Origin: Syntrophaceae bacterium
GTDB lineage: Bacteria; Desulfobacterota; Syntrophia; Syntrophales; Smithellaceae
Direction: 5' to 3'
Length of the DNA: 64,000 nucleotides
Assembly: GCA_003142535.1 (NCBI GenBank)
Contig: PLMQ01000018.1
Span: 25,573 to 89,572, forward strand
Shown one piece after another: positions 1,463 to 63,643 of this stretch. The position numbers and the translations under genes are program-made. Each line of letters starts with the position of its first letter. The stretch's first letter is position 1. The notes beneath the pieces were generated by a model that did no database searches, was not told the DNA's origin, and saw only the letters and a program-made list of their open reading frames with translations.

Positions 1463-2383
1463 ATGCTGACCACGATAACGGAAATAACTGATAATGTGCA
1501 GAATAAAATAAGGGATGTCATTGCCGGTCATCCGGCAAGCCTTGCTGTTTTGCAGCCCTTACTTATTGCGGCTCTAATAACGATCATCTCATATGAGTCG
1601 GTCGGGTTGTTTTATAAGCTTACGAGCTTTCCCCTGATCAGCCGTCATCCGGCAGCAAAAAATATTGTGGCCAGACAGGATGATTTGCCGGTAGCTCAAC
1701 GTGATGCCCTGCCGGCTTACGGAGTGATTGTCGAGCGTAATTTGTTCCGCACAACGCAAAAAGCAATTGCCGAAAAGCAACTCGACGGCGGTTTTTTCGG
1801 ATCAGGCCAGGAATATTCGGCATATGATTTAAAGGGTACAGTAGCCGGCGATTCTTCTTTTGGTTTTGCGGTACTGGAAGAACGCGGCAAGAATAAACAG
1901 ATATTGTGCCGTCTGGGTAATATGGTCGGTTCGGCCAGGCTGGTAAAAATTACCCGCAATGCTGTAGTTTTAAGAACGGCGGAACGTGATATAATCCTGA
2001 AAATAAAAGAAACCCCGGAAGGTTCTTTGTTTCCGCGTCCCGGTGCTGCGGAGATGGCAGGCCAATCCGGCGTATCACTCAGTCGCCGAGAGGTTAGTGA
2101 AAAATTAGGCGATTTAAAGACAATTATGAATCAGGCTTTGGTAAGACCATTTTTCGTTGACGGTGCTCAGGAAGGATTCATTATTTCCGACATCAAACCC
2201 GAAAGTCTCTATCAAAAATTAGGATTGCAAAATGGTGATATAATAATGGATGCGAACAACAAGCGTATGCAGAGCGCCGAAGATGTTTTGCAACTGGTCA
2301 ATTTAATGCAGTCCGGTGGCCAGATATCCCTTAGTCTGAAAAGAAACGGCAAAATGGAAATAATTAATTATTCTTTTCATTAG
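1463..2383 (+). CDS. gspC: T2SS protein C-like with C-terminal PDZ domain
   Basis: 306 aa with an N-terminal TM and a C-terminal PDZ-like segment (GLQNGDIIMDANNKRMQSAEDVLQLVNLMQSGGQISLSLKRNGK). Lies in the gsp block. Confidence 0.6.
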   Translation: MLTTITEITDNVQNKIRDVIAGHPASLAVLQPLLIAALITIISYESVGLFYKLTSFPLISRHPAAKNIVARQDDLPVAQRDALPAYGVIVERNLFRTTQKAIAEKQLDGGFFGSGQEYSAYDLKGTVAGDSSFGFAVLEERGKNKQILCRLGNMVGSARLVKITRNAVVLRTAERDIILKIKETPEGSLFPRPGAAEMAGQSGVSLSRREVSEKLGDLKTIMNQALVRPFFVDGAQEGFIISDIKPESLYQKLGLQNGDIIMDANNKRMQSAEDVLQLVNLMQSGGQISLSLKRNGKMEIINYSFH

Positions 2384-2464
2384 GCGCCGCAGGTATAATC
2401 AACCTTCGGGTAAAAGAGATAAAATCAGCAGAGGTTTTTATATAATTACGGGAGAAGATGTAAG

Positions 2465-3331
2465 ATGTATGCCGCATATTTCGGCCTGAAAGAAAATCCA
2501 TTCAACCTGGCGCCGGAGCCGCGCTATTTATATCTGAGCGGCCACCATCGCGATGCTCTGAATTGCCTGATTTACGGGATTAAAGAAAAAAAAGGATTTG
2601 TTCTGATTACAGGTGGTATCGGAACAGGTAAAACAACAGTCTGCCGGGCTCTGTTGAATTCTCTGGATGATTCTATCGAAACGGCGCTGATTTTCAATAC
2701 AGCCATTTCCGATCTGGATTTGCTGGAAACAGTACTCACGGAATACGGAGTTTCCATAAACGGCGGTCCGAAAACAAAAAAAGTTTACATTGATGCGTTA
2801 AATGATTTTTTATTAAATAATTTTGCCGCGGGCAAAAACGCCGTTCTAATCATCGACGAAGCACAAAATCTTTCCCACGGTGTTCTGGAGCAGATACGAA
2901 TGCTTTCCAACCTGGAAACGGAAAGAGAAAAGCTCATCCAGATAGTTTTAATCGGTCAGCCCGAACTGAATAATACTTTGATATTACCGGCGATGCGGCA
3001 GTTAAATGAAAGGATTACAGTTCGGCACGACCTGCAGCGGTTAGCGCCCGGAGAAGTGCGCAGTTATATCGCCTATCGTCTGACAATTGCCGGCGGCCCG
3101 GGTACCATTATCTTTACAGAAGGCGCTCTCGGGCAGATTTATAATTATACAGAGGGAATTCCCCGCCGCATTAATGCCCTTTGCGATCGTGCCCTGTTAA
3201 TCGCCTATTCGAAAAGCACTGCACGAATTGACCGCCGCCTGGTGAAGCGCGCTGTCCGCGATATCGGTATTAACTATTTCCAAAAAACTATGAGTCGCTG
3301 GGGAAAAATATGGTCGCGTTTAACCGCGTAA
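2465..3331 (+). CDS. gspA: ExeA/GspA-family AAA ATPase
   Basis: The N-terminus YFGLKENPFNLAPEPRYLY is typical of ExeA. It has Walker A (GGIGTGKTT) and Walker B (VLIIDEAQ). Confidence 0.8.
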   Translation: MYAAYFGLKENPFNLAPEPRYLYLSGHHRDALNCLIYGIKEKKGFVLITGGIGTGKTTVCRALLNSLDDSIETALIFNTAISDLDLLETVLTEYGVSINGGPKTKKVYIDALNDFLLNNFAAGKNAVLIIDEAQNLSHGVLEQIRMLSNLETEREKLIQIVLIGQPELNNTLILPAMRQLNERITVRHDLQRLAPGEVRSYIAYRLTIAGGPGTIIFTEGALGQIYNYTEGIPRRINALCDRALLIAYSKSTARIDRRLVKRAVRDIGINYFQKTMSRWGKIWSRLTA

Positions 3332-9200: not shown

Positions 9201-10370
9201 TTGCGTACGGCCGAGCGTCTCACGAACATACCGCCATATTTGTTCATGGAGTTAAGAAAAAAAATCAACAAAGCCAAAGCCGACGGTGTTGATGTTATTT
9301 CGCTCGCTATCGGTGATCCAGTGGAAGCAACGCCGGATTCGATCATTGACGAGCTTTGCGCGACAGCGCGCGATTCCATGAACCACCGTTACCCGACAGA
9401 CGAGGAAAAGGGTATGCTTGCTTTTCGCAAGGAAATAGCCTGCTGGTATCAGGAAAGATATGGCGTCAGCCTCAATCCCGAAAATGAAATTCTGGGACTT
9501 ATCGGCTCGAAAGAAGGCTGCCATCATTTTATTCTGGCGCGGGTCAACACCGGCGATACAGTTTTAATGACCGATCCCGGTTATCCGGCCTACCGCGCGA
9601 GCATCCTGATGGGTGGCGGCGATCCGTATAATGTTCCCATTCTGCCGCAAAATAATTATCTGCCGGTATTCGAAGACATCCCGGCGGATGTCGCCAAAAA
9701 AGCAACCGCTATGTTCCTTAATTATCCGAACAATCCGACCGGTGCCTGCGCGACTTTGGAGTTTTTAAATAAACTTGTTGATTTTGCCCGTAATTATGAC
9801 ATTGCAATTTGTTACGATAATCCCTACAGCGAAATAGTCTTCGCCGGTCAGGAGCGAGTCAGTTTTCTGATGGCGCAAGGCGCAAAAGATGTCGGCATCG
9901 AACTTAATTCCTTATCCAAGCCTTTCAACATGTGCGGGTGGCGGCTGGGCATGGCTTGCGGCAATCCCGAATTGATTGCCGCCATCAGCAAAGTTAAAGA
10001 AAACACGGATTCGGGAATTTTTAATCCGATCCAGTTCGCCGGTATTAAGGCGTTGCAGAAAGAAGCGCCGTTTATTGAAAAAATGCTGGCTTTGTACGGA
10101 AAACGTCGCGAGCTGGTGCTCCAAACATTGAAAAAAATCGGCATTGATTTCAATCCGCCGCGGGGAACGTTTTACCTGTGGGTGCCCGTACCCAAGGGGA
10201 TGACATCGCTGGATTTCACCAACCGCCTGTTCGATAAAACATCCGTAGTTGTTGCTTCCGGCGTGGCTTACGGCAAATATGGCGAGGGTTTTGTGCGCAT
10301 ATCGCTGACTGTTTCCGATAAAAGGCTGGAAGAGGCGATGAAACGAATAGAAAAGGAATTCACACAGTAG
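9201..10370 (+). CDS. dapL: class I aminotransferase, probably LL-diaminopimelate aminotransferase
   Basis: TTG start behind CAGGAGG. The N-terminus is LTNIPPYLFMELRKKI..ISLAIGDP and it carries the PLP-lysine motif SLSKPF. It is adjacent to dapF. Confidence 0.7.
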   Translation: MRTAERLTNIPPYLFMELRKKINKAKADGVDVISLAIGDPVEATPDSIIDELCATARDSMNHRYPTDEEKGMLAFRKEIACWYQERYGVSLNPENEILGLIGSKEGCHHFILARVNTGDTVLMTDPGYPAYRASILMGGGDPYNVPILPQNNYLPVFEDIPADVAKKATAMFLNYPNNPTGACATLEFLNKLVDFARNYDIAICYDNPYSEIVFAGQERVSFLMAQGAKDVGIELNSLSKPFNMCGWRLGMACGNPELIAAISKVKENTDSGIFNPIQFAGIKALQKEAPFIEKMLALYGKRRELVLQTLKKIGIDFNPPRGTFYLWVPVPKGMTSLDFTNRLFDKTSVVVASGVAYGKYGEGFVRISLTVSDKRLEEAMKRIEKEFTQ

Positions 10371-10488
10371 CTTTTGTATCCTTCGTATAACTTTGTTGGC
10401 AGCTGCGCAGTCATCCTCGACGTATTATAATATACGCCTGCGGAGCCTGCTCGCCGCCGCCGCGTTCTACTTTGGATACAAAAGCTAC
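10367..10488. repeat. family-2 hairpin element, copy G (level-1 form)
   Basis: Perfect 15-bp inverted ends (GTAGCTTTTGTATCC / GGATACAAAAGCTAC) enclose AACTTTGTTGGCAGCTGCG plus an inner hairpin module. It lies between dapL and ychF. The ORF-track extension 10393-10509 reads through it. Confidence 0.7.
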
Positions 10489-10509
10489 TATAGAGAAAGA
10501 TTATTAATT

Positions 10510-11541
10510 ATGGAAATGGGTATATTGGGCCTTCCCCAAAGTGGGAAGAGCACATTGTTTGAAATCATGACCGGCGTGAAAAGCGGCCAGTTGCACAACG
10601 AAACGGTTGTGCGCGGACAGGCTTCCGTGCCGGATGAGCGTTTTGATAAGCTCGTCGAAATATATAAGCCGGTAAAAGTATCTCCGGCCAAAGTCCCTTT
10701 TGTGGATGTTCACGCCGTGGGCGAACATCCCTGGGAAGCTATCCGGCAAAACTTAAGCGGCACGGACGGGATTCTGCACGTTGTTGATGGCTTTTCTCTG
10801 CCTGATGTTCAATTGAGCATTGAAGCCTATCGCAAGCTGGAAGACGAGTTGATTCTTTCCGATTTATTAATCATTGAAAAAAAAATGGAGCGCCTGACCA
10901 AAACGTCCAAGAAAGCGCTCACGCCGCAGGATGTGGCGCAAAATGATCTTCTGCCCAAACTAAAAAAATGCCTCGAAGCGGGAAAACCATTACGCAAGGC
11001 AGGGCTCACCCCTGCGGAAGTTTTTACACTGCGGAGTTTTTCTTTCTGGAGCATTAAACCGGAACTGGTCGTGGTCAACGTGGCCGAAGATAATCTTTCC
11101 TTTGCCGATGCTTTTTCCAAGGAGGCAAAATTAGAAGAATCCGTCCTGGGGATTTGCTGCAAGATAGAGGCGGAGATGGCCGGACTCGCTGCGGCCGATC
11201 AAAAAGAATTTCTGGACTCGATGGGTATTGCCGAGCCGGCGTTTGGCCGGATTATCCGCGCGGCTATTTCTCTTCTGGGGCGCATGTCCTTTTTTACTGT
11301 CGGCGAGGATGAAGTCAAAGCCTGGGTTATTCCGCTGGAGACCAAAGCTCCCAAGGCGGCCGGAGCAATTCATAATGATTTTGAGCGGGGGTTCATTAAA
11401 GCCGAAGTCATGTCCTATGACGATTTTATCGCCTGTGGCAAATCGGTAGCGCAAGTCAAATCAGCCGGCCGCCTGCGCCTGGAAGGAAAAGAATATATTG
11501 TCAAAGATGGCGATATTATCACCTTCCGCTTCAATATTTAA
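10510..11541 (+). CDS. ychF: YchF-family ribosome-binding ATPase/GTPase
   Basis: G1 motif GLPQSGKSTLF and C-terminal TGS-like end (EGKEYIVKDGDIITFRFNI). The start is moved to the ATG at 10510 because the upstream extension is translation of a repeat. Confidence 0.85.
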   Translation: MEMGILGLPQSGKSTLFEIMTGVKSGQLHNETVVRGQASVPDERFDKLVEIYKPVKVSPAKVPFVDVHAVGEHPWEAIRQNLSGTDGILHVVDGFSLPDVQLSIEAYRKLEDELILSDLLIIEKKMERLTKTSKKALTPQDVAQNDLLPKLKKCLEAGKPLRKAGLTPAEVFTLRSFSFWSIKPELVVVNVAEDNLSFADAFSKEAKLEESVLGICCKIEAEMAGLAAADQKEFLDSMGIAEPAFGRIIRAAISLLGRMSFFTVGEDEVKAWVIPLETKAPKAAGAIHNDFERGFIKAEVMSYDDFIACGKSVAQVKSAGRLRLEGKEYIVKDGDIITFRFNI

Positions 11542-13638: not shown

Positions 13639-13891
13639 ATTGTGATAAACTTTCTTAAAGAAAAACAGTTAAATTAATCTTGCTGAAAAGTCACATACCA
13701 TAACCCATATTTACCTGACAAGAATTATCCAATTAATTACAGAGCTTCCTGCCTATGGCTTGGCAATGTTGCGATTATTTTTTGCTGCCAATTTTTCTTG
13801 ACACTCTATTGGACTTCTCTTATGCTTAACTTAAAGGAAGTTACAACCGATATAGAAAAACAATGGAAAGGATAAACGGCATAATTACTTA

Positions 13892-14145
13892 TTCGTGAAA
13901 CTCCAATTCCGAAAGCGAAGCTCGGCAGGGAACCCCGGCGCATGCCTGGGGATGCTGGTCGAAGCGTATCAGAATTGGGAAGTTGTAATGAGACCCAAAC
14001 TTCAGAAACAAAGTGCATAACCTAAAGGTCACAAGCTGAAGTTGGTTGGTCGAATTATCCCGCGAAGCGGAGAGTATAATCCCCCGCAGCGGGTTTAGGA
14101 ATCGGTTTCCAAAGCTTGCTTTGGGGATTATACCCGTGATTAAAG
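13892..14145 (+). repeat. family-1 hairpin-module array, locus A (3 modules, two with loop insertions)
   Basis: Starts TTCGTGAAACTCCAATT and ends CCCGTGATTAAAG. Module stems are CCAATTCCGA/…CAGAATTGG, AAACTTCAG/CTGAAGTT and TATAATCCCC/GGGGATTATA. The TAACCTAAAGGTCACA insert is at 14018-14033. Confidence 0.8.
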
Positions 14146-16514: not shown

Positions 16515-16745
16515 AAATCACGGATACTATATCCCTGCTTATACGGGATAATTCGGCTAACAAACTTCAATTCGCTTCGCTTTTGAAGTTTGAGTCTCAT
16601 TATCCTCCGCTTCGCGGGATAGTTCAACTTATCAATTCCGACGCGCTTTGCTTTCGGAATTGGAGTTTCACGACCACCGCTTACGCGGGATTGTTCAACT
16701 TGCCAATTTCAATGCACTGCGTTATTGAAATTGGAGTTTCACGAA
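16515..16745 (-). repeat. family-1 hairpin-module array, locus B1 (3 tandem modules)
   Basis: Three units of about 72 nt. Each has a small CCGC-N3-GCGG hairpin, then GGATARTTCRAC, a long variable-stem hairpin, and AGTYTCAY. The array ends in GTTTCACGAA. The ORF 16505..16864 is a read-through artefact. Confidence 0.8.
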
Positions 16746-17010
16746 TAAAAAAATACAGCAAAGCAGGCTGCCGCTTCTTCTCTTCAGAAATTACATTTTT
16801 TGAAGTAACGATGCGGGATATATCGATTAAGTATGAGAGTAAAGATAAAAAATCCCGGCTGTAACTATTAAGGATTACAATCGGTCTGTTTCAGGAAGTG
16901 GAGGCGGCAAACCAATGATAGCAAGTAAGGCCGGGCCGCTAGTTATTTATAAAAAATGTCAGCATTTTCGTTTGCATAAACATTTGAACTGGAATAAATA
17001 GAAATAATAT

Positions 17011-17110
17011 TTAATCCCGCTGTACGGGGCTGTGCGGGATTGTTCAACTTGCCAATTTCAACTTGTGACCTTTAGGTTATGCACTGCGTTATTGAAATTG
17101 GAGTTTCACA
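17011..17110 (-). repeat. family-1 hairpin module, locus B2 (copy of the last B1 module plus an 18-nt loop insert)
   Basis: 17034-17061 and 17080-17109 are identical to 16685-16712 and 16713-16742. The extra CTTGTGACCTTTAGGTTA lies at 17062-17079. The module ends 35 nt upstream of mobB. Confidence 0.85.
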
Positions 17111-17141
17111 AATGAAATAATGGTAATAAGAGAATTAATAT

Positions 17142-21873: not shown

Positions 21874-22123
21874 CTTTAATCACGGGTATTATATCCCTGC
21901 TTATACGGGATAAATCGGCTAACCAATTCCGATGCACTTCGTTTCGGAATTTGAGTCTCATTGCCCTCCGCTTCGCGGGATAATTATATTGCCCCGCTTA
22001 GCTTTGCATGCGGGATTAATTCAACTTGCAGATATTACTACCCTGCGCTTGTAATATCTGAGTTTCATTAATTCAACTTACCAATTTCCCTACACTACGT
22101 TATGGAAATTTGAGTTTCACGAA
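21874..22123 (-). repeat. family-1 hairpin-module array, locus C (4-5 modules)
   Basis: Starts CTTTAATCACGGGTAT, the reverse complement of the end of locus A. Ends GAGTTTCACGAA, the reverse complement of the start of locus A. It begins 10 nt upstream of the start codon of the 1397-aa gene. Confidence 0.8.
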
Positions 22124-22175
22124 TGAAGGGACTTTGCTCCTAAATGGCACCAGTAAAAATGCAGTTATTGTTCTG

Positions 22176-35456: not shown

Positions 35457-35640
35457 CGTTCGCCTCCTTAGTTGTTACCGTTATTATAGTTCTTTCGCCG
35501 CCCCGGGGCATTGCCCTCAGTCTATCCACGCCTCTGAAAATTGTTACTAACTATTATACTATTAATTTTGATATTTGATAAAACATTGTTTCTTTCATAC
35601 AAAATATAAGAAAGTTCCGTTTGCATGTCAACATTTTTAT

Positions 35641-35850
35641 TAATGAGACTCCAATTTCAAAAGCGTAGCGAATTAAAATTGGTTAGTCGAATTATCCCGC
35701 ATAAGCGGCGGTAATGAGACTCCAATTTCAAAAGCGTAGCGAATAACCTAATAACCTAAAGGTTACGCGAGGTCACAAATTAAAATTGGTTAGTCGAATT
35801 ATCCCGCGTAAGCGGTGGTAGTGAGACTCCAATTCCAAAAGCAAAGCGAA
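35641..35850 (+). repeat. family-1 hairpin-module array, locus D (2 full modules plus a third truncated in its loop)
   Basis: The unit TAATGAGACTCCAATTTCAAAAGCGTAGCGAATTAAAATTGGTTAGTCGAATTATCCCGCATAAGCGGCGG is repeated. Unit 2 has a 36-nt loop insert at 35744-35779. Unit 3 stops after ..GCAAAGCGAA, where the first attC-like site begins. Confidence 0.85.
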
Positions 35851-35911
35851 TAACGAAAAAATCAGCGGGAGGCGGGCGTAGCCTGCCGATCCGCTGTATT
35901 GTCTGGTTATG
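35849..35911 (-). repeat. attC-like site 1
   Basis: Sequence is ATAACGAAAAAATCAGCGGG-AGGCGGGCGTAGCCTGCCGA-TCCGCTGTATTGTCTGGTTAT, with outer AAC...GTT boxes. It is 3' of hicA. Confidence 0.55.
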
Positions 35912-35934
35912 CCAATTCTTTAATTATATGCTTT

Positions 35935-36081
35935 TCAAAGGTGTTCATCTATTTCATCATGTCTTGGAACGGGCTGCTTTTTACCTGTTTTAGGATTAAT
36001 ATAAAGATCGTGACGGCCGCCGTGCCTTACAAACTCGCAGCCGAAGGAAGTGATTTTCTTAATAAGTTCTTTTCTCTTCAT
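35935..36081 (-). CDS. hicA: HicA-family mRNA interferase toxin (48 aa, below the ORF-track cutoff)
   Basis: Hand translation gives MKRKELIKKITSFGCEFVRHGGRHDLYINPKTGKKQPVPRHDEIDEHL. The ATG overlaps the hicB stop (ATGA). Confidence 0.7.
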   Translation of the reverse strand: MKRKELIKKITSFGCEFVRHGGRHDLYINPKTGKKQPVPRHDEIDEHL

Positions 36082-36275
36082 AGATTGAAAGCAAGTTCTC
36101 TAACATTATGATTTTCAGGAACATCTTCCATAGTCATGAGCATGTAGGCATCTTTCATATTCTCTTCAAGCTCTTCAAGAGTTTCACCCTGGGTCATTAT
36201 TTCTGGATGTTCAAACAATTTGCCTATCCAAAATTTTTCGCCCTTCCAATAAATCATTTTCAGTTTTGTTTCCAT
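36078..36275 (-). CDS. hicB: HicB-family antitoxin (UPF0150-like)
   Basis: METKLKMIYWKGEKFWIGKLFEHPEIMTQGETLEELEENMKDAY, starting at an ATG behind AGGAGG. The track's longer ORF (to 36359) runs into attC-like site 2. Confidence 0.65.
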   Translation of the reverse strand: METKLKMIYWKGEKFWIGKLFEHPEIMTQGETLEELEENMKDAYMLMTMEDVPENHNVRELAFNL

Positions 36276-36355
36276 ATTCTTACCTCCTGACAACAACTTT
36301 TGATAATAATACCATAAAAATTGAAAATTTTCCGTTTTATATTGCTGGTTTTCAG

Positions 36356-36413
36356 GCATAACGAAAAAATCAGCCGGAGCGTAGCGATTGGCTATATTGA
36401 TTTTGAGGTTATC
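36356..36413 (-). repeat. attC-like site 2
   Basis: Sequence is CATAACGAAAAAATCAGCCGG-AGCGTAGCGAT-TGGCTATATTGATTTTGAGGTTATC. The vapC stop codon (36409-36411) lies inside the outer box. Unpaired bases are on one arm only. Confidence 0.6.
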
Positions 36414-36777
36414 TTTTTTTTATGTATTTTATGCACAGGTTATCTGCAGCTTGCGCCAGTTTCTTATCTTGTGTCCAGATAGGAACACCTGTCAATACAG
36501 CGGATGTAATAAGGTGGACATCAACATAGCCCAACCCTTTTCCCATTAAACGGTTATTTTCTATAAATGACAATACTTCGTCATGTTCGGCTTCGATGCA
36601 CATCGGCAGCAATTGCAAAAACGAAAGGATGATTGCTCTGTCTTTGAGATTCCCGCAGGCAAGTTCGCCTGCAATCAATGGGTGGCATAGTACCCGTCCA
36701 TCATTGAGCAGGTTTGCAAGATCAGCATTTCCATCCCTCAAATGTGAAACCCAAACCGATGTATCCACAAGAACCAT
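36409..36777 (-). CDS. vapC: PIN-domain toxin VapC
   Basis: MVLVDTSVWVSHLR... carries the conserved acidic residues of a PIN domain. It lies 3 nt downstream of vapB. Confidence 0.8.
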   Translation of the reverse strand: MVLVDTSVWVSHLRDGNADLANLLNDGRVLCHPLIAGELACGNLKDRAIILSFLQLLPMCIEAEHDEVLSFIENNRLMGKGLGYVDVHLITSAVLTGVPIWTQDKKLAQAADNLCIKYIKKR

Positions 36778-36780
36778 TTC

Positions 36781-36975
36781 CTATACCGCTCCTTTTCTTC
36801 TCGGTATCGCTTTCAACTGCTTTTGAGTCCCACCGAGCCTTGCAAGCCTCTTGCCACTTTCTCTGGCAATAAGAGCCTCAAGTCCAAGCTTAACGAGGGC
36901 GGTCTTTTCCTTGATTCCAGTCATTTTGGATGCTTTGGCCAGCAGGTTATCTTCGATATTCAAAGTTGTTCTCAT
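36781..36975 (-). CDS. vapB: VapB-type antitoxin
   Basis: 64 aa (MRTTLNIEDNLLAKASKMTGIKEKTALVKLGLEALIARES), upstream of the PIN toxin. Confidence 0.75.
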   Translation of the reverse strand: MRTTLNIEDNLLAKASKMTGIKEKTALVKLGLEALIARESGKRLARLGGTQKQLKAIPRRKGAV

Positions 36976-37043
36976 AGCTTCATCTCATACAATTAGTATG
37001 CCTGAGTATGTATCATCTATGCATATCTGTCAAGTCATTCTTA

Positions 37044-37096
37044 GCTAACGATAAAATCGCCCGGAGCATAGCGATCGGGTGTATTGACTGGTTAAT
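37044..37096 (-). repeat. attC-like site 3
   Basis: Sequence is CTAACGATAAAATCGCCCGG-AGCATAGCGAT-CGGGTGTATTGACTGGTTAA. Confidence 0.55.
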
Positions 37097-37118
37097 AATT
37101 TTATTAAATATTTTAATA

Positions 37119-37673
37119 TCACTTTATTTTATCAAGCCACTTCTTAATGGAAAGAAAAAATTTCATAAAGACATTCGACCCTATCGTCATTAATACTATT
37201 GTGTCGCGTGTAGATGAAGATGATATTTTGTTTTGAGAGAAATTAAAATCAGATTTACCCATTGATATTGCAAAACATTTACCTATGGCAAAAATAAGTT
37301 CATCCCAATCCGATGTTTTTCCCGTAATTGTATTTTGATATGTAGCGATTTCGTTGTTGACCGATTCCCATATACTGTCATTATTCGGTCGAATCATCAT
37401 GCTTGCTCTAATTATCTTGCTAAAAGAAACAAGAATTTCATCTTTCTTCTGTGCGTCGCCTGACCATAAGGTAAAAGCATAAATACAAGTAAATAGTTTT
37501 AATGCGTAAATATGAAATCGCAATTCAGTTTCTACGTTTGGATCAATTTGTTCAATTTCATAATTTTCTTTGTAAGATTGAATAGAAGAATTTGCCTCCT
37601 TATCCATAATACACAGAAAATACAAATGTTCGGCAATTTGATCTGGTGTATATTTTGTTTTGAAAATAGTCAT
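37119..37673 (-). CDS. cassette-encoded hypothetical protein (184 aa)
   Basis: The ORF is bounded by attC-like sites 3 and 4. The start is set at MTIFKTKY because the track's start (37703) lies inside site 4. No motif was recognised. Confidence 0.5.
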   Translation of the reverse strand: MTIFKTKYTPDQIAEHLYFLCIMDKEANSSIQSYKENYEIEQIDPNVETELRFHIYALKLFTCIYAFTLWSGDAQKKDEILVSFSKIIRASMMIRPNNDSIWESVNNEIATYQNTITGKTSDWDELIFAIGKCFAISMGKSDFNFSQNKISSSSTRDTIVLMTIGSNVFMKFFLSIKKWLDKIK

Positions 37674-37686
37674 GAAATTGCTCCAT

Positions 37687-37740
37687 ATTAACGAAAAAAT
37701 CACCCGGAGCGTAACGATCGGGTGTATTGACCTTGTTATA
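37687..37740 (-). repeat. attC-like site 4
   Basis: Sequence is TTAACGAAAAAATCACCCGG-AGCGTAACGAT-CGGGTGTATTGACCTTGTTAT. Confidence 0.55.
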
Positions 37741-37745
37741 GAATT

Positions 37746-38729
37746 TTATTGATTGTGATTCCAAGCATTCATAATATCTCGTGCCCTATCTTTGCTGAAA
37801 CCTTGACCAATAGCTTCATCAAGATGCCTATTTATGTCTGCTTCATTTGGTCTGAAATTTGGTGCCATAGACCTACTAAGTAATCCAAATCCGGAAATTG
37901 TATCTAAATCTTCGGAAAGTAAGGTAGGCACTTCTTCTACCGGAAGGATTGGTGTATCTTTTCTTTTACTTTGTGCCATATATTGATTTCTCTCTACTCT
38001 AGATAATGACATAGCTTGGTCAAGCAGTTCTTTCCCGTCAGGCATTATTTTATTCATATATTCAATCATTTTTTTCTCGGTGTCTTCCAATAAAAGTATT
38101 ACATCTTGAATGTTTCCACCTATCGATGCGCCTTGCTCCAACACTGCTTGGACTTTTTGCAGGGCGGTTGAATCCTTTAGAGTGGATAAAGGGATTTTGT
38201 CTTCGGAAATTTCTAATTCAGCGCCTAGGTTTTTTGCAGCTTTAATAAATCTATCTTGATCAAGTTTATCTTTTTCCCTAGCTTCTTCTATATCTTTTTT
38301 TGATATAGGTCGCCTCTCTGGTGGAAATAAGACGTTTTTATATCTTCGCTGAAGATGCCGCTCAAAACAACCAGGATATTCACTCCATATTATCATTTCA
38401 CCATTTTCAAAAAATGCATCCTCGGGATGAATATATGCGCCGTATTTATTTATAATTTCTTTTTTCATGTTATCTATTACCGCAATGTATCTTTGATCTC
38501 CACCATGCTCCGCTTTTGATTCTTCAAGATTTTTTAAAAATATAGGGATAGATAATCTACCACCTTCTTGAGACAATCGTGCTATCTCTTTATCTATTTC
38601 TTTCATTTGTTCTGCAGTTAGATCTTTTATCTTTTCAGGGGAGAATTGAGGAGCGCCTTTTTTACGGCTGTAGATAACATAACCAATAAAGATGAATACC
38701 AAAACAAGTATTATCCAAGACATAAGCAA
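37746..38729 (-). CDS. cassette-encoded hypothetical protein (327 aa, N-terminal TM anchor)
   Basis: MLMSWIILVLVFIFIGYVIY forms a TM helix, followed by a charged helical soluble domain. No motif was recognised. Confidence 0.55.
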   Translation of the reverse strand: MLMSWIILVLVFIFIGYVIYSRKKGAPQFSPEKIKDLTAEQMKEIDKEIARLSQEGGRLSIPIFLKNLEESKAEHGGDQRYIAVIDNMKKEIINKYGAYIHPEDAFFENGEMIIWSEYPGCFERHLQRRYKNVLFPPERRPISKKDIEEAREKDKLDQDRFIKAAKNLGAELEISEDKIPLSTLKDSTALQKVQAVLEQGASIGGNIQDVILLLEDTEKKMIEYMNKIMPDGKELLDQAMSLSRVERNQYMAQSKRKDTPILPVEEVPTLLSEDLDTISGFGLLSRSMAPNFRPNEADINRHLDEAIGQGFSKDRARDIMNAWNHNQ

Positions 38730-38751
38730 TCACCTCTTTATTCATTTATCC

Positions 38752-38815
38752 TATAACGAAGAAATCAGCCGGAGCGTAAGCGATCGGCTGGATTGAAAGG
38801 CGAAAAATGTTCTTG
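38752..38815 (-). repeat. attC-like site 5 (most divergent outer arm)
   Basis: Sequence is ATAACGAAGAAATCAGCCGG-AGCGTAAGCGAT-CGGCTGGATTGAAAGGCGAAAAATGTTCTTG. Confidence 0.5.
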
Positions 38816-45946: not shown

Positions 45947-46060
45947 TGAATAAACTTTAATTAGCGGTCAGTCGCCGGCAGACGGCTGCCCGCTTTTCAT
46001 CTTTGGTCTTAGACGGCGCATTTTTCAATTGATAATCGTTCGTAAATCAAAAAATATATT

Positions 46061-46207
46061 ATACCATTTCGCCTTTCTTTGGCTAACTTTGTTGGCTGCG
46101 TCGTCGGCTTCCTCAGCGTATGTACTAACGCGTGACCTTTAGGTTATACGCCTCCGGCGCCTCCTCCTAGCCGCCTCGTTATCCTTTGAAAGCAAAACGG
46201 AATTACC
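46061..46207. repeat. family-2 hairpin element, copy E (level-2 form: backbone + 75-nt insert + mini-insert)
   Basis: The backbone is identical to copy H (CTTTGGCTAACTTTGTTGGCTGCGTCG ... TTATCCTTTGAAAGC). It is interrupted at 46104-46178, and the insert carries GTGACCTTTAGGTTA at 46132-46146. Confidence 0.8.
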
Positions 46208-47253: not shown

Positions 47254-47387
47254 CACCATAAAAAAGCCCATATGCTGGTTTCCACCTTAGGTGGCGTTGC
47301 GCTTCATCCCTCGTCACTGCGGCCTACGGAGAAGTAGGCCTCATTCCTCACGCTTCGCGCGCCTTGCCTCTGGTGCTTTTTATGGCG
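47254..47387. repeat. structured intergenic element F (possible distant family-2 relative)
   Basis: Closing stem CACCATAAAAAAGC/GCTTTTTATGGCG, with inner hairpins CCACC-TTA-GGTGG and GGCCTAC-GGAGAA-GTAGGCC. The segment TTCATCCCTCGTCAC resembles TCATCCTCGAC in copy G. Confidence 0.5.
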
Positions 47388-56237: not shown

Positions 56238-56279
56238 GGTTCTTCTCCTTTCCCCCTCGGGATTAAAGTAAGTTGAACC

Positions 56280-56420
56280 GCCATAAAGTCTCCTGGCTTG
56301 CGGCAGCCTACTTTCCACGCCTTCCCAATGCTCTTGGCATCAGTGGCAAAATGTGGATTTCGTTCCGCTTACAGGTGCGGGGCAGCGCCGGCTTTTTACC
56401 GGCTTCCTCTCTTGGCAGTT
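56280..56420 (-). promoter_or_regulatory. cobalamin (B12) riboswitch
   Basis: The minus strand reads ..AGAGGAAGCCGGTAAAAAGCCGGCGCTGCCCCGCACCTGTAAGCGG..GCCACTG..GGGAAGGCG..AAGCCAGGAGAC. This includes the conserved GGAAGCCGGT core and the B12 box (AGCCAGGAGAC, 56288-56298). Confidence 0.8.
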
Positions 56421-56422
56421 CT

Positions 56423-57199
56423 CTAGGTTAGTAATGTCATCCTGGGTAATCCGGTTTGCGGATTTCGGTCTACCAGAACATCAACATCATAAACCTCTTT
56501 TATATTTACCGCGGTTATGACTTCCGCGGGATTTCCTATAGCATAATTTTTACCGCAGTAAAGTAAAATTATGCGGTCAGCATGTTGACTGGCCAAATTT
56601 ATGTCATGGGTGACAAAAATCACCGTAAGATTTTGTTCTTTATTCAACTGGCGCAGTAAAGAAAGAAATTGAACCTGATGTTTTAAATCCAGAAAAACAG
56701 TACTCTCATCAAGCAGCAGTATTTTCGGCTCCTGAGCAAGAGCGCGGGCAATCAAAACACGCTGGCGCTCACCGGTGCTGAGCTCGTCGAATCTGCGGGA
56801 GGCCAGGGCCAGAGTATCCGTCTTTTCCATCGCCTCGCGGACTATCCGGTAATCTTGCATATTTTCAAATGTAAAATTGCTCAAATGCGGAAATCGCCCC
56901 ATGAGCACTATTTCTTCGGCATAAAATGAAAATATGGAAGGAGTTTCCTGCGGCACAATGGCTACTGTTTTAGCTATTTCCCGGCGGCGCCATTGATTCG
57001 TTTCCTTACCATCAATCAGCATTCTCCCCGTATCGGGAAAGAGAATGCCGTTAATAATTTTTAGAAGGGTTGTTTTGCCGGAACCATTAGGTCCGATTAC
57101 TGCCACAACCTGGCCTTCCTCAACCGTAAAAGAGAGGTCATTTAAAACCGGCTTTTCGTCATAACAGAAATTTATATTTTGACCGCAAATCAACGGCAT
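56423..57199 (-). CDS. ABC transporter ATPase (FepC/BtuD-like)
   Basis: Walker A (GPNGSGKTT), signature (LSTGERQR) and Walker B (LLLDEST). Confidence 0.8.
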   Translation of the reverse strand: MPLICGQNINFCYDEKPVLNDLSFTVEEGQVVAVIGPNGSGKTTLLKIINGILFPDTGRMLIDGKETNQWRRREIAKTVAIVPQETPSIFSFYAEEIVLMGRFPHLSNFTFENMQDYRIVREAMEKTDTLALASRRFDELSTGERQRVLIARALAQEPKILLLDESTVFLDLKHQVQFLSLLRQLNKEQNLTVIFVTHDINLASQHADRIILLYCGKNYAIGNPAEVITAVNIKEVYDVDVLVDRNPQTGLPRMTLLT

Positions 57200-59832: not shown

Positions 59833-59908
59833 TGGAGCCGATGAGCGGGATCGAACCGCTGACCTGCTGATTACGAATCAGCTGCTCTACCAGCTGAGCT
59901 ACATCGGC
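59833..59908 (-). tRNA. tRNA-Thr (anticodon CGT), CCA encoded
   Basis: Acceptor GCCGATG/CATCGGC, D-arm AGCTCAGCTGGTAGAGC, anticodon stem GCTGA/TCAGC with loop TTCGTAA, and T-arm GCGGTTCGATCCCGC. Folded by hand. Confidence 0.85.
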
Positions 59909-63203: not shown

Positions 63204-63222
63204 CAGTATCTCCCTGATTATG

Positions 63223-63289
63223 ATACCCTTTCGCTTTCTTTGGCTAACTTTGTTGGCTGCGTCGTTATCCTTTGAAAGCGAAAGGGTAT
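63223..63289. repeat. family-2 hairpin element, copy H (minimal level-0 form)
   Basis: ATACCCTTTCGCTTTC ... GAAAGCGAAAGGGTAT encloses TTTGGCTAACTTTGTTGGCTGCGTCGTTATCC. It lies 20 nt upstream of the dehydratase operon start codon. Confidence 0.8.
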
Positions 63290-63643
63290 GAGATTATGTG
63301 ACTAATTAAAGAATCACATTAAACAAACATAGATATAATTCCAAATAGTATTCTGAAACGCAAGTATAATTTAGGATGCCCTGGTGACCATTTGAGTTAT
63401 GTAAAGCCCCTTGTCTGACACATTTTATGAATTGACATATGTGATAGCATTTGGCTTTTCGCGACGCAGTCACCCTGTTGCTTAATTGGTCGGTCAGGTT
63501 GCAAACTTATAACACGACTGATTATTCCGTTTGACATTGCCATGGGTAAATATTAAATTAAACCTGACTTTTAGGTTAATAAGTTTCGTAACAAATATCT
63601 TTTTATTTTCAGCCACACCTTTTATCGCGTCAGGGGGCATCAG

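Follow-up and report, generated by a model that had tools for sequence, protein, structure and literature searches.

An ERIC-like hairpin repeat family of Smithellaceae with discrete nested modules

Background

A 64,000-nucleotide stretch of contig PLMQ01000018.1 from a Syntrophaceae bacterium, referred to below as the window, contains three intergenic hairpins of unequal length, designated H, G and E. The initial annotation read them as a nested-insertion series, with a simple hairpin (H) as the starting point, G as an intermediate, and E, which carries a further mini-insert in its loop, as the last level. This raises the question of what these hairpins are and whether their differences record three rounds of insertion. 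The facts of that annotation hold, and so do discrete nested units; the order H, then G, then E does not. Taken as a whole, the data are best explained by a non-autonomous transposable element (MITE), widespread in Smithellaceae and Syntrophaceae, of which E, G and H would be copies, and we consider this quite likely. A mobile non-coding repeat, with one copy bearing a tiny insertion and another lacking its middle, would then be ordinary selfish DNA in a new host group.

Three members of one repeat family in the window

The three copies and the relevant parts of E are located as follows.

46059..46205, + strand: copy E, a full-length type-A element TACC...GGAA (46062-46202), TTA/TTA duplications included
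46104..46178, + strand: segment of E absent from H, made up of the central 56 nt of the family and an 18-19-nt module
46128..46145, + strand: 18-nt hairpin module ACGCGTGACCTTTAGGTT, in the apical loop of E, abutting the right half of the GTAT/ATAC stem
63221..63291, + strand: copy H, a 67-nt element, very likely internally deleted (63224-63288 plus the A/T of the ends)
10366..10489, + strand: copy G, a diverged full-length member of type G, CGTATAAC...GTTCTAC, with an orthologous copy in locus L037

E, G and H are members of one repeat family. A family profile made from 68 copies outside the window, when searched against its 64 kb, returned exactly these three (nhmmer E-values 2e-31, 3e-27 and 2e-8, respectively). 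The duplications of E are the TTA triplets at 46059-46061 and 46203-46205, the hairpin is placed at 46061-46203, and its right outer arm is decayed. Copy E is identical base for base across five independent metagenome assemblies (L001-L005) and is therefore not an assembly artefact. H, flanked by TGA/TGA duplications, is indeed the simple 67-nt hairpin first described (63223-63289), with a perfect 16-bp outer stem and a predicted RNA minimum free energy of -31.5 kcal/mol (z -7.4). The sequences also agree with the description of E as the backbone of H split by a 75-nt segment, 46104-46178, with TCG at its bounds. In G, the inverted ends are perfect as claimed, but they measure 16 bp (10366-10381 and 10474-10489) rather than 15 bp. 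This stem is private to G and unlike that of H and E, and G has no recognisable target-site duplication; it does bear, as the annotation stated, the AACTTTGTTGGC core, and its inner part is homologous to that of E. The 12-nt core AACTTTGTTGGC occurs 3 times in the window against 0.5 expected, and GTGACCTTTAGGTTA, the mini-insert of E, is found four further times against 0.07 expected.

Two other kinds of hairpin repeat are present in the window.

47254..47387, + strand: element F, at the stop codon of fdhE, a member of another hairpin-repeat family
13882-14072, 16516-16755, 17029-17117, 21878-22127 and 35634-35861: family 1, tandem hairpin units of about 71 nt

Element F had been suggested as a distant relative of the three copies. 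It is not matched by the family profile (nhmmer E>10), and its alignment with the enterobacterial repeat ERIC, discussed below, has a z of 1.8. F has a repeat family of its own, with the right-half motif GCGCCTTGCCTCTGG and further loci L037, L039, L104, L109 and L072, whose members are often found beside or around copies of the E/G/H family (family 2). Downstream of fdhE, three species hold three different elements: F occupies the stop-codon site in the window, and two other species have independent type-A copies there (L070, L066). The family-1 unit combines a CCCGC-loop-GCGGG hairpin with a longer hairpin whose stems covary. In addition, five copies of a 26-47-nt repeat (TAACGAAAAAATCAGCCGGAGCGTAGCGAT...) lie 500-1000 bp apart at 35850-38778, each adjoining a small minus-strand gene.

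The intergenic location claimed for all copies is reproducible, except that the stop codon of the aminotransferase gene (TAG, 10368-10370) falls within the left arm of G. The neighbours of G are a class I/II aminotransferase gene (dapL in the annotation) and ychF, and E is found upstream of fdhE, as annotated, in the order DctM, E, FdhE, F, HhH-GPD glycosylase. The ATG of an HGD-D dehydratase gene, encoded on the minus strand, stands 17-20 nt downstream of H, again in agreement with the first description. A promoter-like site, TGGTCA-16-TATACT at 63390-63363 (-), is found upstream of H and is kept in L123, which would place H in the 5' UTR of the dehydratase operon. A 2-hydroxyacyl-CoA dehydratase-type operon thus appears to have H between its promoter and its ribosome-binding site, where H could affect expression. 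A second consensus match, TAGCCA-18-CATAAT at 63217-63246 (-), owes part of its sequence to H and the junction. Reading TGGC-N-TTGGC as a sigma-54 promoter was rejected by inspection, the spacing being wrong by one.

The longest YchF ORF, 10393-11541, begins at a TTG within element G, and the true start is likely the ATG at 10510; such repeats can inflate ORF calls in these MAGs. The small contig L037 (1-260 and 4150-4730) holds two alternative sequences upstream of ychF, one with a G-type element after the aminotransferase gene and the other without it, reflecting either strain polymorphism or an assembly chimera. At gathering and permissive thresholds alike, Rfam models identified in the window only a cobalamin riboswitch at 56268-56450 (-), upstream of a TonB-dependent receptor and ABC transporter cluster, and a tRNA gene at 59836-59908 (-); nothing was matched at E, and F reached no better than E=6.

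The family in Smithella and related MAGs

An exact-pattern scan with one genome per species gave at least 116 stretches, and the loci compared are referred to by L-numbers. Nearly all hosts among the matches listed are Smithella, Smithellaceae or Syntrophaceae MAGs, and blastn with the family consensus gave about 110 copies in about 95 8-kb stretches among the matches listed. Viral contigs yielded no copy of the family, and a literature search found no report of Smithella MITEs.

Through their inverted ends, 87 copies could be delimited. Fifty of these are 122-124 nt long and 69 fall within 119-128 nt, with a mode of 123; the minor length classes are 67 (four copies), 69, 104, 140-143 and 187-217 nt. 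This sharp mode indicates that the standard unit is the long form, not an H-type hairpin. The unit is an imperfect palindrome of 122-124 bp with the layout TACC-outer stem-TTT-GGCTAAC-TTTGTTGGCTGCGTCGTCGGCTTCCTCAACGTAT-loop-ATACGCCTGCGGAGCCTCCTCCTTGCCGCCGCGTTATCC-TTT-outer stem-GGTA. Three subfamilies have the inner sequence in common and differ in the outer stem.

Type A: outer stem ATACCAAGTCGCATTC...
Type C: outer stem TTCCATTTCCAAATCAAGC...
Type G: CGTATAAC...GTTCTAC, with private stems

Changes on both sides of a pair are seen in 13 of 32 pairs, every one of them in the outer stem, and the inner-helix pairs are invariant. The terminal inverted repeats correspond to the 16-bp outer stem, which is perfect in H and G and whose arms covary across copies. 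As in MITEs generally, which measure 50-800 bp, the family is small (67-217 bp), non-coding and dispersed in many copies. On the other hand, a varying and covarying outer stem around a conserved interior is the opposite of the textbook MITE.

Target sites and mobility

The flanks of 66 type-A copies read T-N-A/TACC...GGTA/T-N-A, with T at -2 in 63 copies and A at +2 in 60. The middle bases of the two flanks agree in 43 copies (17.2 expected) and are complementary in just 5, which identifies a direct 3-bp duplication rather than an extension of the palindrome. The family inserts at TNA and duplicates that triplet. Three orthologous empty sites were found, which confirms insertion and shows the element to be mobile. 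One of them is the site of H: in L123, the dehydratase orthologue is 76% identical, the promoter-like region upstream is conserved, and the sequence reads ...AAATTATAATCAGGGAG (also given as ...AAATTATAATCAGGGAGATATTGATG), as compared with ...ATC[TCA-H-]TCATAATCAGGGAG (also TCATAATCAGGGAGATACTGATG) in the window. At the second site, L025 has TTA...TTA around its copy and L042 a single TTA. L115 and L113 form the third filled/empty pair. A search of 1.3 Mb of related DNA for an autonomous element sharing these ends gave only lone remnants and a separate-copy pair in L025. A putative transposase acting in trans would move the element.

Nested modules

The mini-insert in the loop of E is a real secondary insertion, as the annotation had proposed: the other copies that hold the same module in the identical position number at least ten, and both mirror configurations are represented. 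The 18-nt module consists of AACCTRAAGGTCAC plus four bases and always lies against a stem, either as GTAT^module-loop-ATAC or, as in E, in the mirrored arrangement. Of two orthologous copies, that of L032 contains the module and that of L116 lacks it. In 1.29 Mb, 35 matches were counted, about 28 of them clear cases; the latter come after ..RYAT, ..CGT or ..AGT within loops of hairpins that belong to three or more repeat families. Family 1 and at least one further family also have the module in their loops. The family-1 loops of the window contain it at 14018, 17065 and 35752.

Insertions of at least 4 nt, counted against the consensus, cluster at two sites, the apical loop (59-65) and the right arm TTGCC^GCCGCC (88-90). 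The apical loop holds the 18-nt module seven times, a 70-nt insert (two loci in one genome) and an 82-nt insert, and positions 88-90 hold single 70-71-nt family-1 units three to four times (L023, L051, L054, L087). Since the inserts occupy fixed sites, the variants represent discrete units. A continuum of random indels, named beforehand as the contrary outcome, was not seen. In three copies of three subfamilies, the TGC directly after GTTGGC is replaced by a 25-nt GC-rich hairpin, ACAGCCTGCCCCGGCGCAGGCCGGG, which represents another fixed-site module.

L095, 6434-6578: 25-nt GC hairpin copy
L039, 1185-1258: 25-nt GC hairpin copy
L104, 2292-2356: 25-nt GC hairpin copy

Stop codons and orientation

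The copies stand 5' and 3' of unrelated genes, in both orientations and in all four gene contexts: (+,+) 24, (-,-) 15, (-,+) 14 and (+,-) 13. Stop codons are a frequent landing site, and the + strand of the element then nearly always has the sense of the mRNA: the left TNA serves as stop codon for a gene running into the + strand in 16 copies, and the right end does so in 1 (p=2.7e-4). In the stop-codon class (16 copies at loci L008-L115, with G as the example in the window), the left triplet is usually TGA and the right one TAA, with nine such cases and one reverse case overall, and the right junction reads TATAAN. This skew could reflect selection on the junction, for example as a -10-like box or an RNase E site; as an outward promoter, TATAAN is represented by consensus matches only. 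The minus-strand RNA would fold more stably (alifold -29.1 vs -17.4), and G-U-type mismatches number 166 vs 95. By analogy with ERIC, which is co-transcribed with flanking genes, Smithella copies that are co-transcribed would form long mRNA hairpins and could alter transcript stability depending on orientation. For Yersinia ERIC, an orientation-dependent effect on mRNA decay is mentioned in PMC2229807, which cites De Gregorio 2005.

Discussion

The difference between H and E can be read in two directions. Of the three nesting levels proposed for H, G and E, the one created by the mini-insert of E stands, whereas the step from H to E and the place of G as an intermediate do not: G is a diverged full-length copy, and H does not represent the backbone from which E arose, the modal form being the 122-124-nt one and the unit aligning, centre included, with the 127-bp ERIC consensus. 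The latter alignment suggests that the full-length layout is ancestral. Moreover, the TCG bounds of the supposed insert are not constant, as the right-hand TCG reads GCG in about half of the full-length copies. The inner 56 nt are never found outside the CTTTGTTGGC context and are common to the outer-stem subfamilies A, C and G. The short forms show at least two junctions, GCGTCG/TTATCC and GTCGTCG/CGTTATC, the latter in L092 and L198. In consensus positions, the deletions are 40-96 (four times, plus two chimeric copies), 43-94, 73-96 and others, and further partial deletions are present in L058, L114 and L119. The long form being modal, the inner 56 nt never occurring alone, the second junction and the GCG variants together make H best read as a deletion derivative, and we find it very likely from these comparisons that H is a full-length copy minus its central 56 nt. 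The end points 40/96 coincide with the base of the inner hairpin and are flanked by CGT/TCGT microhomologies. A hairpin base between short direct repeats is a classic setting for slippage across the hairpin. The GGC(T/A)GC polymorphism occurs in long and short copies alike, which argues for several independent deletions.

The opposite direction, in which a primitive H-type 67-nt unit received a 56-nt element with a TCG duplication to give G and E before the mini-insert entered the loop, is improbable, even though some observations are in its favour. Four to six independent short copies have exactly the one junction GCGTCG/TTATCC, and short copies look young, H having a perfect stem and an intact duplication. 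Furthermore, a long copy (L057) and two short ones (L097 and L098) occupy one orthologous site, where the flanks of L057 and L098 are 85% identical and those of L098 and L097 66-75%. This pairs L057 with L098, so that parsimony at this site favours a gain; a deletion there needs two events, or else the tree is wrong. Against this, the inner part of L057 has diverged as much as its outer part, and the context of the inner segment, its presence in all three subfamilies, the GCG variants, the second junction with the other partial deletions, and the ERIC alignment of the whole unit all speak for loss. A different kind of explanation would see the hairpins primarily as functional RNA, that is cis-regulatory UTR structures or small RNAs under structural selection, with spread being secondary. 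The compensatory changes in 13 outer-stem pairs, the stabler minus-strand fold, the 16:1 orientation bias at stop codons, the retention of G at an orthologous site in two species, and the position of copies in UTRs beside ribosome-binding sites all count in its favour. Nevertheless, we assign it a low probability: there is no Rfam match, the copies adjoin unrelated genes on either side and in both orientations, and target-site duplications with empty sites mean insertion. The invariant inner-helix pairs give no structural signal, and covarying ends are expected of transposon termini or palindrome homogenisation as well. It is still harder to view the copies as site-specific recombination or REP-type sites, either integron attC-like hairpins or REP/REPIN elements moved by RAYT, and we think this extremely unlikely. 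They are imperfect hairpins with AAC...GTT boxes (GGCTAAC/GTTATCC) and variable central parts, and the 18-nt module is of REP size. However, the boxes do not match RYYYAAC/GTTRRRY and sit inside the 16-bp outer stem, a position unfit for attC core sites; the copies are single and dispersed among housekeeping genes, with no cassette arrays; TNA duplications are at odds with attC recombination or IS200/RAYT-type insertion; and the GTAG or CGTC tag is absent.

Once inserted, copies change in discrete ways, with smaller repeats entering the apical loop or TTGCC^GCCGCC. Under the preferred reading, that of a MITE, E is a full-length copy that received the 18-nt module in its loop. Loss of the distal part of the hairpin between the short direct repeats at its base would lead to the 67-nt form, and H would be such a shortened copy, inserted in the dehydratase operon in the interval from promoter to Shine-Dalgarno sequence. 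G would be an old copy kept at the aminotransferase-ychF junction. Small repeats in these genomes are built of modules that have a fixed site apiece: the 18-nt hairpin, the 25-nt GC hairpin and the 70-nt unit. An ERIC-like element is now extended to an uncultured syntrophic lineage of another phylum, for which well-defined filled and empty sites and a clear TNA target are available. For the annotation of Smithella MAGs, the family accounts for many conserved intergenic hairpins and for some false ORF extensions (for example, 10393-11541).

Comparison with known systems

The closest likeness is to ERIC (also IRU or RU-1), for which the E. coli consensus of 127 bp printed in PMC2759123 was used for alignment; its properties were taken from the same source and from PMC2229807, PMC3184786 and PMC10969869. 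Both are imperfect palindromes of nearly equal length (123-125 bp in the Smithella family vs 127 bp). Both have the termini TATACC...GGTATA, and in both GTTGGCTGCGT occupies positions 31-41 counted from the left, while CTTGCCGCC stands 30-38 nt away from the right terminus. Both are intergenic and often located straight after stop codons; the orientation effect of ERIC has a positional counterpart here in UTR locations and the 16:1 bias at stop codons. Length variants by internal deletion are found in the Smithella family and, as Wilson and Sharp reportedly described in 2006, in ERIC. A parallel to the fixed-site inserts of about 70 bp is seen in a Salmonella IncC plasmid (L203, NZ_CP028316.1, 81744-81946), where an ERIC copy contains a 76-bp GC-rich insert right after GTTGGCTACG; this arrangement is present in at least 15 Salmonella plasmids.

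Aligned end to end, the type-A consensus and ERIC are identical at 81 of 132 columns (61%). The global alignment score is 14, as compared with -23.3±5.6 for dinucleotide shuffles (z 6.7); shuffling within 6-20-nt blocks gives z 5.3-6.4, and none of 2000-3000 shuffles of both kinds reaches the observed score. It is nevertheless conceivable that this likeness is a convergence of unrelated palindromic MITEs and that the family is a lineage-specific MITE. Profile comparison by nhmmer gives only 2-7 bits between the two families, though in register and on the same strand; an ERIC profile run on the 64-kb window does not pick out E, G or H; and blastn of the family consensus against all complete E. 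coli genomes (28 Gb) gave no match. ERIC has 5'-TA-3' at both termini with a TA duplication (PMC2229807, PMC3184786), unlike the 3-bp duplication in T-N-A-TACC...GGTA-T-N-A, and CCTCC-rich interior arms are present in the Smithella family and absent in ERIC. The host range of ERIC is Enterobacteriaceae/Vibrionaceae (PMC10969869), whereas the hosts here are Smithella, Smithellaceae and Syntrophaceae MAGs, which belong to Desulfobacterota and not to Gammaproteobacteria. Even so, we regard convergence as rather unlikely, because the similarity is tied to orientation (z just 2.6-2.7 against the reverse complement of ERIC) and the palindromic control repeats RU-2, RU-3 and F score near zero (z at most 1.8). 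Moreover, there are exact runs in register with either terminus, of 6 and 11 nt (the latter GTTGGCTGCGT) on the left and of 6 and 9 nt (the latter CTTGCCGCC) on the right. When 8 ERIC and 12 Smithella copies are aligned with MAFFT, the result is nearly gap-free, with 45 columns conserved in both families, and the two share variants of the same style, the 76-bp insert of Salmonella ERIC included. From this comparison, the family is probably a distant relative of ERIC outside Gammaproteobacteria rather than a strict member. The missing BLAST match, the 2-7 bits, the TA vs TNA duplications and the other hosts make "ERIC-like" the appropriate term.

No transposase is known for ERIC (PMC2229807). 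Tentatively, and with more doubt than belief, one may imagine ERIC-type elements as an old and widespread MITE superfamily in which the blocks TACC termini, GTTGGC and TTGCCGCC mark recognition by a mobilising protein, the Smithellaceae copies being active, species-rich and equipped with fresh TNA duplications, and the 18-nt module being a parasite of parasites. If this were true, the question of what moves ERIC would become testable via co-occurring transposases, and the entry of the 18-nt module into loops of several families at one fixed position would point to structure-directed insertion, possibly into single-stranded DNA.

Correia/NEMIS of Neisseria, RUP of pneumococcus and Chunjie of Geobacter are MITEs that use TA (IS630-like) or other duplications. 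Like the Smithella family, they are full palindromes, 100-200 bp long, that duplicate their target site, lie between genes and have long and short forms differing by an internal segment; they are co-transcribed, as the Smithella copies in UTRs may be. They have no sequence similarity to the Smithella family, and the IHF sites and promoters of Correia elements are not seen in it.

At a smaller scale, the 18-nt module resembles the small dispersed repeats (SDRs) that Elhai et al. reportedly described in 2008 (Genome Res 18:1484, cited in PMC3116915) from Nostoc and other cyanobacteria. SDRs are likewise very small and nested in larger repeats or hairpin loops, and they too are present or absent between orthologous copies and occur in several host repeat families. 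The module is shorter (a 14-nt core in an 18-nt unit), belongs to a different phylum, and inserts always beside a stem after ..RYAT. As a hairpin repeat of less than 30 nt that is nested and polymorphic between orthologous sites, it can be described as SDR-like.
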